A DNA stretch of 64,000 nt from a phage, in the sequence record OZ336096.1, one strand, 5' to 3'. Shown here piece by piece: positions 3,586 to 48,610 of this stretch (positions are counted from its first letter, which is position 1; each line of letters opens with the position of its first letter). The notes below the pieces were generated by a model. That model was not told where the DNA came from and searched no databases. It saw nothing but the letters and a program-made list of their open reading frames with translations. Both the position numbers and the translations under genes were made by a program.

Positions 3586-3917
3586 TGGGAACATTAACTA
3601 TTGATGGTAAGAATAAAATCCTCGCCACGCTAACCCCAACGACTATTATTTTACACAATGTAGACCCAACGGCAGACCCTACAGCAAATAAGGTTACTCA
3701 GCCAGTGGCTATTTATTTTTCTGAACCGGATAATGGCTTAATTGCCTCAGAAGATACAGTTAATATTACTGTTCCAGCTTCTGCAACGGTCTCACACTAT
3801 AGCTTGTGGGATGCTAACGATAAATGCGTGGCAACTGGTGCTCTTAGCAAACCTCAATTCTTCGCTGAAGAAGGTATCTATGTTATCTCTTCAGTCTCTG
3901 TAGATTTAAACAAATAG
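3585..3917 (+). CDS. hypothetical protein (head module)
   Basis: 110-aa ORF, start overlaps stop of upstream ORF (ATGA-type coupling). Confidence 0.4.
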   Translation: MGTLTIDGKNKILATLTPTTIILHNVDPTADPTANKVTQPVAIYFSEPDNGLIASEDTVNITVPASATVSHYSLWDANDKCVATGALSKPQFFAEEGIYVISSVSVDLNK

Positions 3918-29937: not shown

Positions 29938-30494
29938 TCAATGTACCTCATACCAGCTCTTACCAACCTTTGCTGTACCAGTTACAAGTGTTTCTTTCCT
30001 CAAACCTAAGTTTTTTGAAGCTTGTCCATACATCCAGTCAGCAATTGCTTTCATATCCTGTGTCATACCCTCTGGACATTCCCAACTATTTTCATCGTGA
30101 TATGCCAGAAGTAACCTTGCTCCGATAGCTGGTTTTCGAGCATTCAGTTTTGTCAGGCCATCTTCACAGGCTTTTCTTGCTGCTAGGTTGATGGCCTCAT
30201 TCTGAATCTGTGCTTCCGAACTCATCAGGAGGTAGTTCAGTAGTTTATGTGGAGATTTGCACCATATCCATGCTCCAGCGACCCTGATATAACCACCTTT
30301 AGCAATTGAAGAATTCTTCCCAAAAACCTCTTCCAGAGCCTTTTTAGACGCCTTAAAATCGGCTTCTAAGCTATCAAGTAACTTCTTAATCTTTGGCAGA
30401 CGCATATAGTAAGTTTGTTTAGTCAATGCACCTTCTTCCGTAGATGATGCTTTGATAGTTTTTGCAAACTTCTCGTCACCTGCACCGAACAATA
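29938..30494 (-). CDS. DNA polymerase (family A, T7-like), exon 2
   Basis: Begins inside motif B (..LFGAGDEKFAK, cf. T7 FLYGAGDEKIG), contains HDE motif C and T7-like C-terminus (KSWYEVH); listed ORF starts with TTG, consistent with an exon rather than an independent gene. Confidence 0.8.
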
Positions 30495-30762
30495 CATCTG
30501 GTCAATACACTCGCAAGGTGTACCAGTTCTCTTATGAACTTCTCCGCATTTCTACGGAGTGTCGGACTATATCACGTAGTAGTAATACTACCGTTGCACT
30601 TGGGAATGGTCATTAGCTTACCACCCTACTCTACTCAGTTCATACATTAAGTATGCTTTTCGATAGTCTCTGAACGTTCCTCTTAAGAGGCTTCGCTGCT
30701 GATTACCATATCTTTTAAGACTTAGGCTTCCAGCAATTCACAACGTTTTACATGCGCCACTG
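30495..30762 (-). ncRNA. group I self-splicing intron (ORF-less) in DNA polymerase gene
   Basis: Conserved group I elements read on the sense strand in order P (AATTGCTGGAA; + coords 30728-30738), Q (AATCAGCAG; 30696-30704), R (GTTCAGAGACTATCG; 30661-30675), S (GATATAGTCC; 30564-30573); proposed boundaries put U at the 5' exon end, G at the intron end, and restore motif B as IYALLFGAGDEK; exact splice sites are inferred. Confidence 0.7.
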
Positions 30763-32935
30763 ACGCATAGATGCCATTTTTGCTCTTCTTACGACCTTTT
30801 GTAATCTCGTGAAGAAGTTCCTCATCCTGTGTCTCCCTACAACGAACAATATCTTCTTCCTTGTTCAGACCAAAGTAAATACTGTTCAGTGTATGCGCAT
30901 CAGTCCCTGTGTAGACTTCATAGAGGTCGTTCTCAGCATCATAACGAAGATACTTGTCAGTTTCTGGATTAAGATACTTATCGAGATGCTTGCAATAGTA
31001 TCTTCCATCCTCTTGCTTAGTGAACTCTACTGACTCTTTACCCTCAGTTACTGCTTTAGTGAAGTCTTCATCACCCATAAAGTTACAAAGAAGAACTAGC
31101 TGGGCTGAGTTCTGGTCAACGGAAACGATGTTAGTCCCCTCCTCACAAATCCACACCTCCCTCATAGGTGCTCCATAGACAGCAGCACCAGACGGTACGT
31201 TTACAATACCATATTGCGTCATACGTCCAGTTGAAGTACCAAACACCATTGCACCAGCACTAAGGCGACCATCTGGACGAATCTGGTTCAACCAACCTTT
31301 TTCATCATCCTTTGAGTTCTCAATAGTCCTGCGTCGGTGCATCAAAGTATAGTACTTAGCAATCTTCTGTCCAAGCTCACCTTCAATCGTATCATAAGAT
31401 GATTCAGTAAGTTTTGGTGAAGTACGGATTAAGCAAGGCTCAAGCAAATCTGTGTACTTCTTCACAGACCAGTTATGTTCAATGTACTGGACACCTTCAT
31501 GTTCAACATAACTCAAGCCGCACCGTTCAACCATCTCCTGCCACTTAGGATGCTTTGTAATCATCTTTTTGTTGTCTTTGAAACGACAAACTTTGACAGG
31601 GCGACCATCTGAATCTTTCTTGTAGTTCCAGTCATCTGGAATCCAGCCAACTGATTTCAAGTAGTCTTTAACAACTGCTACTTGAGTCATACGAGAAACT
31701 TCAAACTCAATTGGTGTATATGGTGCATCAATCAATCCTGTGTAGCGACTTGACTCCAGTCCAAAGTGGTTAACAACATGACTGTTATAGTACTTCACAG
31801 TTTTAACTGTTTTTACTGGCTTCCAGTCTTTGCATTTCTTACCAATCTTTGCGTTCAACTCATTGCAAATTGCACGAGCATCCTTCATTGCTACAAAACC
31901 CTCCTTGTACTCTTCACCAGTTACAGAGTTGGTTGGCGTATAGCAATTTCTCTTTTCAATGTTAAAAATCTTTGTAGTTGGCTTACCAAATGGTTTGATT
32001 TCGTATGTCTGCATCTCACCGTTACGTACCTGCTGACGATACTTTGTCTTAGGGTACTTGGTAATCCTCTTCAGTCCATCTGCATGACCAAATGTTTCAA
32101 CATACTCATTCCAAGCTTTTGCAAACTCTTCTCCAGTGACTTTACCTTTGGTCTTAATAGTTGGAGGAAGATGTGGTTCAACCTCTGAAGCAAGCTCATT
32201 AGTCAACTTGTCAAGTTCCTTTACATGGAACTCCATAAGTTCTTTATCAGCTTTCCAACCATTGATAGCTTGTTGACTCATCCAGAAAGATGTTTCTTTA
32301 GCTCGCATGTAGGTTTCATAAGTGTCTATGCCACACTTCTTAAGCTTGAGATACTCATTATCAAGTGCCCGTTTAGTTTTGGCGTTAATACGGATATCTT
32401 CTACAACACGAGTGAAGATTTCTGCATTCCACACACCCCAATGTTCAATCTCTGGTTTACGAACACCAACACGAGCACCCCATGCAGCCAAACCATGAGC
32501 ACCTTTATAACCCTTTGGAGTTGGTCTATCCATCCACTGAACACGAGACTGGATAAGAGAATCCTGAAAGAAGTTACTCCACGGTTTACACTTTGGATTA
32601 TCAAAGTTCCATAAATCAGGTGCAATGTGGTTGAAAACCCACCAGTCATAACCGAGACCATTATGGATGCAAAGACGTTTTGCCTTTAACGCAAACTCAA
32701 CACCTTCACGCAAACCACCCTTAATGTACTTGGTATACTTGTGACCGAGGATAGGCTCGTCTGTAAAGACCCATACAGGTGGCTCTTCATCGTCAGATTT
32801 ATAGTCTGCAAAGGCCATTACGTGAACTTTAGTGAACTCAAGGAGTAAACCATCAGTTTCTGTATCACCAACCAAATGTAAGTTTTTAAAATCTACGTTT
32901 TCCATTTTTACTCCCTCTAAAATCATTAACCACAT
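30763..32935 (-). CDS. DNA polymerase (family A, T7-like), exon 1
   Basis: 3'-5' exonuclease Exo I motif DTETDG near N-terminus; ends in first half of motif B (RKKSKNGIYA); probable true start at the ATG for MENVDFK (~32905); the listed ORF's last 13 codons are read-through into the intron. Confidence 0.85.
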
Positions 32936-46039: not shown

Positions 46040-46045
46040 AATGAA

Positions 46046-46068
46046 AGGGTCTCTTCGGAGACCTTTTT
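46046..46068 (+). terminator. rho-independent terminator upstream of nrdD
   Basis: GGGTCTC-TTCG-GAGACCT followed by TTTTT. Confidence 0.75.
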
Positions 46069-46087: not shown

Positions 46088-47284
46088 ATGAACAAAGTAC
46101 AAATTATTAAAAAGAATGGCTCACTTGAAGAACCGGATATCAAAAAAGTTTTAGTAGCAGTCACAAAGTCAGCTAACAGGGTTGGTTATAAAGAGCTTCC
46201 ACCAGATGTTACTCAAGCCCTTGAGTCAGCATTTATGAGGATTCTGGTAAAATCTACTAAGCAGAATAATTTACTCGTTTCAGTAAATGATATTCACAGT
46301 ATTGTTGAAGGTGCTTTGGCAGAGGTCAATCACGAGATTTATGAGTCTTACTCAACATACAGAAATTACCGTAAAGAGGTTGCTCAAAATTGGGACGAAC
46401 TCTACCAGAAGACTAAAGATACACTCTTCTTAGGTGACCGTGAAAATGCTAACTTTGACAGCAGTTTAATTTCTACGAAAGGTTCAATTATCCGTGGTTA
46501 CCTGACTAAAGAAATCTTTAAACAGTATCATCTAACACCAGAGGAACTTGAAGCCATTGAGAAAGGCTTTATCTATATCCACGATTTGAGAGACCTGATT
46601 TTTGGTGGTATTAACTGTTGCCTGTTTGACATTGGTAAAGTACTAAAAGGTGGCTTTGAAATGTCCGGCATTGAGTACTGTGAACCTAAATCTGTACTGT
46701 CAGCGTTGCAGGTTATCGGTGACGTAGTACTTTCAGCAACTGCACAGCAATTTGGTGGATTTACTTTAGCAGAGATTGATAAGGTACTTGTACCGTATGC
46801 TAAGAAGTCTCTACGCTATCATGCTGAGAAAGCAGCATCTTACGGTATTCCTAAAGAACATTACCATAATTATGTCATGGAGCAGCTACAGATTGAATTA
46901 ACTCAAGGTTTCCAGTCACTAGAGATGAAGCTAAATACTGTACCTTGTAGCCGTGGTGATTTCGCATTCACAACTTTAACATTTGGTTTACTTGACTCAG
47001 ACATGTCTAATGAAGACAACCGACTACAATACATGATTGCAAACACCATTCTTGATGTTCGCATGAATGGACAAGGTAAGAGCAAGAAGCCTGTTGTATT
47101 CCCTAAACTGGTTTATATTCATGACCAGAAGAGACACGATGAGAATATCTGTCAAGGTCAACTGTACAGTAAAGCTATTGAGTGTTGCTCTAAAGCTATG
47201 TATCCAGATTTCTTAAGTGTATCTGGTCATGGTGCTGTAGCAGAGGCTTTTGAGCGTTCTGGCAAGGTAATTTCACCGATGGGT
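46088..47284 (+). CDS. nrdD: anaerobic ribonucleotide reductase (class III), exon 1
   Basis: Class III RNR N-terminal region by overall resemblance; ends ...VISPMG just before the intron. Confidence 0.8.
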
Positions 47285-47600
47285 TAACAGGCTCTATAGC
47301 TCATCTAAAACGTGCCTAAACAGGGAAACTCTACAGATGTAGACAATCCTGTGCTAAATGATGTACGATGTAAGAAACTATACAACATAGGAGTCTTACA
47401 TGCCAAATAACTTCGAATATGAGTTTGAATACATCTAAATGCCGAACGACTAACCGTGATGAATGTAGCGGTGTAGGGTCAAGCGACTCGAAATGGTACG
47501 CTACTTAGAAATAAGTAGAAGATATAGTCTGGACTTACTGGCGACAGTAAGCAGCTTGAATAAAGCGGGGTAAGCTTAGCGAACTTACCTGAACAACAAG
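47285..47600 (+). ncRNA. group I self-splicing intron (ORF-less) in nrdD
   Basis: Exon 1 ends in U, intron ends in G; joining gives PMG-CRAFLSP, recalled as conserved in NrdD; intron holds P-like (AAACAGGGAAA, 47318-47328), Q-like (AATCCTGTG, 47345-47353), R-like (GAACGACTAAC, 47444-47454) and S (AGAAGATATAGTCT, 47517-47530) elements in canonical order; no long ORF. Confidence 0.75.
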
Positions 47601-48548
47601 TGTAGAGCGTTTTTATCACCATACCATAACGAATATGGTGAAGAGTTTTATGTAGGTCGTGCTAATATTGGTGCTGTATCTTTGAACTTACCAATGATTT
47701 ACCAGTATTCTAAAGAGAATGGTTTAGATTTCTGGAAAGAGCTTGATAAGTACCTAGAGATGATTCGCAGCTTCCACAAGAAACGCTACGAAATGATTGC
47801 TAATATGCCAGCAAGTTCTAACCCTCTTGCATTTACACAAGGTGGTCTGTACAAAGGGACTAAGAAACCTACTGATAAGGTTGGCTGGGATATTGTGAAG
47901 TCCTTCACAGCTTCTTTTGGGGTTACTGCACTAGACGAGCTATCTGTTCTTGCTGAAGGTAAGCGACTTCATGAAGTTGGAAGCTGTAGTTTTGCATATG
48001 ATGTTCTGGAATATATCAACATAAAGACTGAAGAGTTTAAAAATGAAGATGGTTTCTTATATGCAGTCTATGGCACTCCAGCAGAATCACTTTGTGGAAC
48101 TCAGCTAAAACAGTTCAGAGATATGTTTGGCGTTATCAAAGGTGTTTCTGATAAAGAATACTTTACAAATAGTTTCCATATGAATGTTGCAGCAGACATT
48201 ACACCATTTGAGAAGCAGGACTTAGAAGAACCTTTCTTCCATATCTGTAGAGGTGGCAGAATCCAGTATGTAAGGGTAGCTAACCCAGAAAACTTACCAG
48301 CACTTAAAAGTTGTATTACAAGAGGGATGTTGAAAGGTTTCTATCAGGGACTTAACTTTGACTTAGCAATCTGTGAACATTGTGGTAACAGACCAAAGGC
48401 TGATGTTGAAGAATGTGAGGTTTGCCATTCACACGATATCTCTGTGATTAACAGGGTGTGTGGGTACTTGTCATTCACAAAAATTAAAGGTCAGTCTCGA
48501 ATGAATGACGCTAAGATGGCAGAAATTAAGGATAGGGTTTCTATGTAA
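47601..48548 (+). CDS. nrdD: anaerobic ribonucleotide reductase (class III), exon 2
   Basis: Reading frame open from 47601 (CRAFLSPYHNEYGEEFYVGRANIG...); Cys cluster and C-terminal glycyl-radical motif RVCGYL. Confidence 0.8.
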   Translation, partial: CRAFLSPYHNEYGEEFYVGRANIGAVSLNLPMIYQYSKENGLDFWKELDKYLEMIRSFHKKRYEMIANMPASSNPLAFTQGGLYKGTKKPTDKVGWDIVKSFTASFGVTALDELSVLAEGKRLHEVGSCSFAYDVLEYINIKTEEFKNEDGFLYAVYGTPAESLCGTQLKQFRDMFGVIKGVSDKEYFTNSFHMNVAADITPFEKQDLEEPFFHICRGGRIQYVRVANPENLPALKSCITRGMLKGFYQGLNFDLAICEHCGNRPKADVEECEVCHSHDISVINRVCGYLSFTKIKGQSRMNDAKMAEIKDRVSM

Positions 48549-48610
48549 AACTTGACAAGGTGATGTGGGTCTTGATAGGCTTGCATCACCTTTTTATTTG
48601 GAGTTACACT

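Follow-up and report, generated by a model that had tools for sequence, protein, structure and literature searches.

The anaerobic ribonucleotide reductase gene nrdD in the phage DNA analysed here (sequence record OZ336096.1; the whole stretch of 64,000 nt is referred to as the window) was found to be interrupted by 316 nt that, judged from sequence, constitute a td-type group I intron of subgroup IA. By far the best explanation is that this intron was once mobile with an HNH endonuclease and has kept its ribozyme intact, and splicing is predicted to yield one NrdD. The RNA would fold into the P1-P10 architecture with guanosine bound at P7, and cleavage after U47284 followed by ligation to U47601 would give an mRNA for a single 714-aa NrdD. 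The ancestral form would have been a mobile intron with an I-HmuI-like HNH homing endonuclease in the P6a loop, from which an in-frame deletion of 426 nt removed codons 3-144 and left the ribozyme untouched. The window copy should therefore still splice and would no longer home by itself.

Structure of the nrdD locus

The window belongs to a Felixounavirus, a Felix O1-like myovirus, and its nrdD region is 95-96% identical to those of REP5, Si3, Mushroom and other phages. Genes around this locus are arranged as nrdB, glutaredoxin, a small ORF, nrdD, four small ORFs and nrdG. As 316 mod 3 = 1, the two parts of nrdD are in different frames, and the ORF of exon 1 (46088-47287) is closed by a TAA (47285-47287) with which the intron begins. 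The boundaries of the insert proposed in the initial annotation, 47285-47600, proved exact, as intron-less alleles lack precisely these 316 nt. The same annotation had exon 1 ending in U and the intron in G, which corresponds to T47284 and G47600, and the reading frame that it expected after joining the exons is indeed restored: connecting 47284 to 47601 gives a single 714-aa ORF that reads ...VISPMG|CRAFLSPYHNEYGEEFYVGRANIG... and continues through RVCGYL.

The spliced NrdD is colinear with the NrdD of intron-less Felix O1 (714 aa), to which it is 97.2% identical. It also aligns with the solved T4 NrdD (1h78, E = 3.5e-75), gap-free across the junction SPMG|CRAFL, and with another NrdD (9d3x, E = 6.9e-77), again with no gap at this point. 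The insertion point divides SPMGCR, a contiguous and conserved active-site motif. Cys400, the first residue after the insert, matches T4 Cys290, and Gly687 within RVCGYL matches T4 Gly580; these T4 residues are the thiyl-radical and the glycyl-radical residue, respectively, of the class III RNR. An intein was considered and rejected, the insert being out of frame and full of stops.

Two CDSs are annotated at this locus in the GenBank records of REP5, RPN213, SPJ41 and SEP1, and a gene in pieces is conceivable, in which each of two NrdD fragments is translated on its own and the two combine into an active enzyme without RNA splicing. There is a precedent in the nrdA gene of Aeromonas phage Aeh1, which is split by mobE and functional without splicing (PMC3045599; described in PMC3653736). 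For the window, this arrangement is highly improbable. In the frame of exon 2, no start codon precedes the TTG at 47682, and initiation there would lose 27 residues, the catalytic Cys400 included; moreover, the interruption falls within SPMGCR, and the gap coincides exactly with a complete group I ribozyme that shows covariation and has P1 and P10 guide pairings to match. The alignment of the two ORFs to two separate full-length proteins in relatives, which had been named as an outcome that would speak against an intron, was not observed; intron-less relatives encode one colinear NrdD of 714 aa.

Architecture and covariation of the ribozyme

A covariance-model search, proposed as a check in the initial annotation, returned a match of the insert to Rfam RF00028 with 52.7 bits (E = 1.6e-10 for the whole 64-kb window), just 2.7 bits above the gathering threshold of 50, and the margin is this small because the 5' end of the model was misplaced into exon 1. 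The P-, Q- and R-like elements noticed earlier are present in the right order (47317-47329, 47345-47354 and 47444-47453) and are equivalent to the P4 5' strand, the P4 3' strand and the P7 5' strand, respectively, while the near-consensus S element, AAGATATAGTCT, could be placed at J8/7 and the P7 3' strand (Table 1).

In P1, a U·G pair (U47284 with G47299) is found at the 5' splice site, and the seventh pair of this helix covaries with the exon, being G-C in the window, C-G in phi92 and the rV5-like phages and U·G in Vibrio phage F97. P7 has five Watson-Crick pairs and, in place of the sixth pair of the consensus, a C·U; it is invariant among the homologs compared and thus gives no covariation evidence either way. 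The unconstrained MFE fold (-90.5 kcal/mol, z = -3.2) recovered 12 of the expected helices (P10, P3-P6a and P7.1-P9.2), including P10 unprompted, and missed the pseudoknotted P7 as well as P1, which competes with P10.

Table 1 Features of the interrupted nrdD gene in the window, with the corresponding site in Felix O1.
Feature	Position	Strand	Details
nrdD exon 1	46088..47284	+	399 codons, last ATG GGT; from the ORF list
P1 and internal guide sequence	47278..47305	+	exon GAUGGGU 47278-47284 pairs with GCUCAUC 47299-47305
nrdD group I intron	47285..47600	+	316 nt; td-like, subgroup IA type (predicted); P7.1/P7.2 present, no P2; endonuclease ORF deleted
P10 intron strand	47291..47298	+	GCUCUAUA; contiguous with the P1 guide strand
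5' core	47311..47365	+	P3 5' strand 47311-47316; P4 47320-47324/47348-47352; P5 47330-47334/47339-47343; P6 47353-47354; P6a 5' strand 47360-47365
Hairpin AUGUAAG/CUUACAU	47368..47401	+	loop: endonuclease ribosome-binding site AGGAG 47389-47393; stem: its AUG
HNH ORF remnant	47400..47438	+	12 codons, MPNNFEYEFEYI*; from alignment with Si3, REP5 and further alleles
3' core	47430..47530	+	P6a/P6 3' strands 47430-47442; P7 47448-47452/47525-47529; P7.1 47453-47456/47469-47472; P7.2 47476-47480/47485-47489; P3 3' strand 47495-47500; P8 47501-47507/47512-47518
J8/7 and P7 3' strand (S element)	47519-47530	+	part of the 3' core
3' periphery	47534..47600	+	P9 47534-47540/47545-47551, GCGA loop; P9.1 47554-47557/47563-47566; P9.2 47569-47574/47584-47589; terminal G 47600
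nrdD exon 2	47601..48548	+	315 codons and stop; first codon TGT = Cys400; contains RVCGYL
P10 partner in exon 2	47601..47608	+	UGUAGAGC; perfect 8-bp pairing with 47291-47298
Intron-linked exon 2 tract	47603..47654	+	9 fixed third-position differences from intron-less alleles, +3 to +54
Felix O1 nrdD, intron-less site			...CCGATGGGTTGCAGAGCTTTCTTATCTCC...

Covariation was evaluated on nine sequences with the P6a loops trimmed, namely four Felixounavirus alleles, the window copy among them, and five distant homologs (the nrdD introns of phi92, EPFV3 and Vibrio phage F97, the T4 td intron and an Aeromonas phage terminase intron). Identity among the Felixounavirus copies is 95-100%, and the signal comes from the homologs in other genera and genes. 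In a structure-blind MAFFT alignment, 94.1% of cells are paired, 39 of the 77 pairs display double changes, and covariation was scored at 0.42. No shuffle among 500 matched this result, and pairing fell to 32-40% when partners were slid by 1-3 columns. MAFFT misaligned hairpins of unequal length (P5, P7.2 and P8), and the helices were for this reason also scored by hand. In the resulting helix-by-helix table, for which strands were hand-picked, 574 of 576 pairs are canonical, and in comparison with the window there are 113 double changes and 2 broken pairs. The unedited alignment is still decisive.

P7.1 and P7.2 can both be aligned with the T4 td intron, and each displays compensatory changes. 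Their occurrence between P7 and the P3 3' strand is the defining mark of subgroup IA in the Michel-Westhof classification, and it is because of these extra hairpins, together with the overall sequence, that the intron is placed in this subgroup.

Loss of the endonuclease and distribution in Felixounavirus

The intron had been described as ORF-less, and its interior indeed contains no ORF of ≥40 aa on the + strand, only a remnant of 12 codons. This state is most probably secondary and due to deletion of an endonuclease gene. Si3, Mushroom, UAB_Phi87, Alf5 and Bas63 carry a 742-nt intron in the same gene and at the same site, with a ribozyme 95-100% identical to that of the window, and the P6a loop of this longer form includes a 154-aa ORF matching Pfam HNH_3 (1.3e-10). 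The window intron corresponds to the Si3 intron minus exactly 426 nt (142 codons) in frame and is otherwise identical. Codons 3-144 of the HNH ORF are taken out by the deletion, while AGGAG, ATG CCA, the last ten codons and the stop remain; the junction is at 47405/47406, ambiguous over AA at 47406-47407. The hairpin containing the ribosome-binding site is identical to the region upstream of the intact HNH ORF in Si3, and the retained 3' codons overlap the 3' strands of P6a and P6, which are needed by the ribozyme.

A different deletion, of 450 nt, was found in RPN213, where the start codon is also gone and a 292-nt intron is left. Both deletions end short of the P6a stem. Because the RPN213 deletion differs from that of 426 nt, the endonuclease was lost at least twice within Felixounavirus. 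Each short form is nested in the long form and keeps fragments of the ORF, from which it follows that the direction is loss and not gain.

As the endonuclease has plainly degenerated in the window copy, and as nrdD is needed only in anaerobic growth such that its loss might be tolerated, it could be supposed that the deletion or later mutations disabled splicing and that nrdD is a pseudogene here. The chance of this is very slight, given that the intron outside the deletion is identical to the endonuclease-bearing Si3 copy, that two independent deletions both spare the P6a stem, that the exons are free of frameshifts and stops and encode an NrdD so close to that of Felix O1, and that ~33 sequenced phages keep the bare form with intact exons. 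Least probable of all is that the bare 316-nt intron is ancestral and was invaded by the HNH gene later in relatives ('collaborative homing'): it is an accepted model that free-standing endonucleases invade introns devoid of an ORF (PMC2988022), and these genomes are rich in free-standing HNH genes, but the short form keeps the ribosome-binding site, the ATG, the first 2 and last 10 codons and the stop, all in frame, RPN213 has a different nested junction, and the rV5-like and Vibrio introns have homologous HNH ORFs in the same loop, because of which the HNH ORF seems to predate the Felixounavirus copies.

The preferred reading of a deleted endonuclease is accompanied by hints that a single 426-nt deletion may have been spread by recombination. 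It is present on two intron haplotypes, one found in the window and REP5 and the other in SPJ41 and SEP1, and in the SPJ41/SEP1 haplotype a short patch of the window/REP5 haplotype adjoins the deletion junction.

The intron was detected in 94 GenBank phage records, with the endonuclease segment in 61 and ~33 bare, whereas nrdD is intron-less in ~150 relatives, including Felix O1, D4, KhF3 and SeKF_63; the numbers of empty, endonuclease-bearing and bare records are approximate and include GenBank/RefSeq duplicates. The spliced junction is matched by ~243 records. Of two properties used to recognize mobile introns, a patchy presence and absence among close relatives was found here, and an intact endonuclease was not found in the window copy.

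Presence of the intron is associated with a particular exon 2 sequence. When 7 intron-bearing and 4 intron-less alleles were compared over 900 nt on each side of the insertion site, all nine fixed differences were confined to positions +3 to +54, and exon 1 had no fixed difference over its 900 nt. Divergence is 0.21 in this tract and drops to 0.02-0.05 in the adjoining 60 nt on each side. The tract, with its sharp limits and its restriction to one side, may reflect co-conversion during homing from a diverged donor, an altered endonuclease target, or both. Among the nine differences, C to U at +3 additionally makes P10 perfect.

Biologically, the locus is a textbook example: in the homing cycle, loss of the endonuclease is what is expected to come next. 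It is possible, and put forward only tentatively, that every stage in the life cycle of a homing endonuclease is represented within this one set of ~240 near-identical Felixounavirus genomes, and that the bare intron is spreading, via recombination or trans-homing. The stages meant are the empty site, the intron with a presumably active endonuclease, the two independent deletions and the bounded 54-nt exon tract. The basis offered for spread of the bare intron is the same 426-nt deletion on two intron haplotypes, and co-infecting phages bearing the endonuclease are the proposed driver of trans-homing. If this were true, Felixounavirus nrdD would be a tractable system for the cycle of invasion, degeneration and loss, and for trans-homing in nature.

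Related introns and earlier descriptions

Phage RNR genes are a classic home of group I introns, with insertion at the most conserved active-site codons, and at the Cys-codon site of nrdD homologous introns occur in at least four phage groups. The nrdD introns of the rV5-like Vequintavirus phages (EPFV3, 'A140'; 762 nt), phi92 (279 nt, ORF-less) and Vibrio phage F97 (819 nt) have an identical ..MG|CR.. junction, and for phi92 a note in GenBank entry FR775895 describes gp192A as a 'spliced variant'. These introns come from other genera and differ from the window copy in that identity is ~70-75% at the nucleotide level and limited to the core, with many compensatory changes in the helices. In the rV5 paper, introns are mentioned in the terminase gene only, not in nrdD.

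The HNH ORFs in P6a of the rV5-like and Vibrio introns are homologous over their full length to the HNH protein of Felixounavirus, with aa identities of 49% (1e-45) and 40% (4e-36), respectively, and because of this homology the intron and endonuclease are regarded as one composite element that is common to several phage genera. The match to the I-HmuI NUMOD-like domain is above the Pfam threshold for the F97 ORF and below it for that of EPFV3.

The clearest blastn match of the window ribozyme in T4 is the td intron (I-TevI), with ~71% identity over the 3' half. The two share P7.1/P7.2, P9.1/P9.2 and an ORF looped out of P6a; the td intron differs in its host gene, which is that of thymidylate synthase, in having a P2 hairpin, and in encoding a GIY-YIG instead of an HNH endonuclease. 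The parallel with the T4 nrdD (sunY) intron drawn in the initial annotation stands only in part. That intron is of group I, resides in the same host gene and does contain an endonuclease ORF, but this encodes the GIY-YIG enzyme I-TevII and not an HNH enzyme, and comparison of the insertion sites, which had been proposed as well, disclosed that the parallel is misleading: the T4 nrdD intron is at codon 180 (QAYE|YEVNTL), ~110 codons upstream of the site equivalent to that in the window (SPMG|C, T4 Cys290). A T4-type intron at the sunY site is also found in Mosigvirus TH58; it is devoid of P2 and its core motifs are the same as those of the window intron.

T4 nrdB still splices, and its intron is likewise a group I intron in an RNR gene. 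A large internal deletion has inactivated the HNH endonuclease I-TevIII of this intron, which itself has stayed in place (PMC2988022, PMC1865063). The gene, the site and the phage family are different, and the truncated ORF is longer than the remnant of 12 codons in the window. I-TevIII is defective in T4 and intact in RB3, which is a classic precedent for loss by deletion in a phage RNR intron (PMC2988022).

The intron in the window is already catalogued and belongs, as an ordinary representative, to a well-known class. In the Felix O1 genome paper, nrdD is described as having no insertion (PMC3185647), which is correct for Felix O1 itself. In Felix O1-like phages a 'split nrdD interrupted by a homing endonuclease' was described and not called an intron (PMC4837284), and homing endonuclease insertions into conserved genes were noted elsewhere (PMC3728262). 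In the BASEL collection, intron boundaries were annotated by comparative genomics (PMC8594841), and the GenBank nrdD of its phage Bas63 (JohannRWettstein, MZ501086) is a join around the 742-nt form. The SPJ41 paper lists 'two introns' among ncRNAs (PMC9951933), and SPJ41 carries exactly the 316-nt form. In the literature searched, neither RNA evidence nor an experiment demonstrating splicing was found for any copy from Felixounavirus.

New relative to the initial annotation are the secondary loss of the ORF, with two independent losses in the genus, an insertion site that is not that of T4, the use of the same site by homologous introns across genera, and the intron-linked tract of 54 nt in exon 2. 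The intron is also of consequence for annotation, as nrdD is given as two genes in dozens of Felixounavirus GenBank records and should be one spliced CDS; in these records the second gene starts downstream of the catalytic cysteine.

The endonuclease deletion and start region of the nrdD intron

SPJ41 and SEP1 were found to share with the 316-nt nrdD intron (47285-47600) the same junction of the 426-nt deletion, which removes part of the HNH endonuclease ORF in frame, but this single junction lies on two different intron haplotypes. The microhomology at the junction amounts to only 2 nt and, in SPJ41 and SEP1, the bases next to it include a small stretch matching the other haplotype. Recombination may have carried a single deletion from one haplotype to the other, or an identical deletion may have occurred more than once.

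The start of the former endonuclease lies in a 7 bp hairpin (AUGUAAG/CUUACAU, 47368-47401), with the AUG in the stem and the ribosome-binding site in the loop. As this hairpin is unchanged in intron copies that retain an intact endonuclease, it may, by analogy, limit translation of the enzyme. Limitation of this kind has been reported for the intron endonucleases of T4.

A second group I intron, within the gene for DNA polymerase

The family-A DNA polymerase gene is also split by a group I intron, which matches the Rfam group I model (Table), and the same three states as for the nrdD intron were found among relatives. L27 and REP10 carry the bare intron, DE7, SP4, GEC_vB_B1 and EC6 carry a form about 535 nt longer that includes an endonuclease, and the alleles of ULIM9 and ECOH1 are about 268 nt shorter and lack the intron. 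A free-standing ORF resembling homing endonucleases adjoins DNA polymerase exon 2 on its downstream side.

Table. Coordinates of features in the window
Feature	Position	Strand	Evidence
DNA polymerase group I intron	30542-30774	-	Rfam RF00028, 64.5 bits
ORFs flanking this intron	30722-32935 and 29938-30492	-	
Free-standing homing-endonuclease-like ORF, 177 aa	29401-29934	-	Pfam HNH_3 (9e-15) and AP2 (1.4e-12)
nrdD flank	46044-46068		GC-rich hairpin, then T run
Other nrdD flank	48559-48597		GC-rich hairpin, then T run

Transcription and annotation of nrdD

Since hairpin/T-run elements flank nrdD and their positions correspond to those of annotated Rho-independent terminators in the record of KhF3, a relative with uninterrupted nrdD, the gene may form its own transcription unit.

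In the bare-intron records OQ174504 (REP5), NC_071010 (RPN213), ON868915 (SPJ41) and MW311372 (SEP1), nrdD is entered as two CDSs, the second with an internal start set downstream of the catalytic cysteine codon; each should be one joined CDS. The nrdD of Vibrio phage F97 (50-4184 of the locus sequence) is annotated in four pieces, with two HNH-containing inserts, the second of which is homologous to the nrdD intron of the window, and an additional break at 3803/3804, immediately ahead of the C-terminal glycyl-radical region.

Entries titled Campylobacter phage A132, Campylobacter phage A140 and Staphylococcus phage SA1 (MG065674 among these) contain sequence of Felixounavirus or Vequintavirus type, with 93-97% identity, and are probably mislabelled or contaminated.
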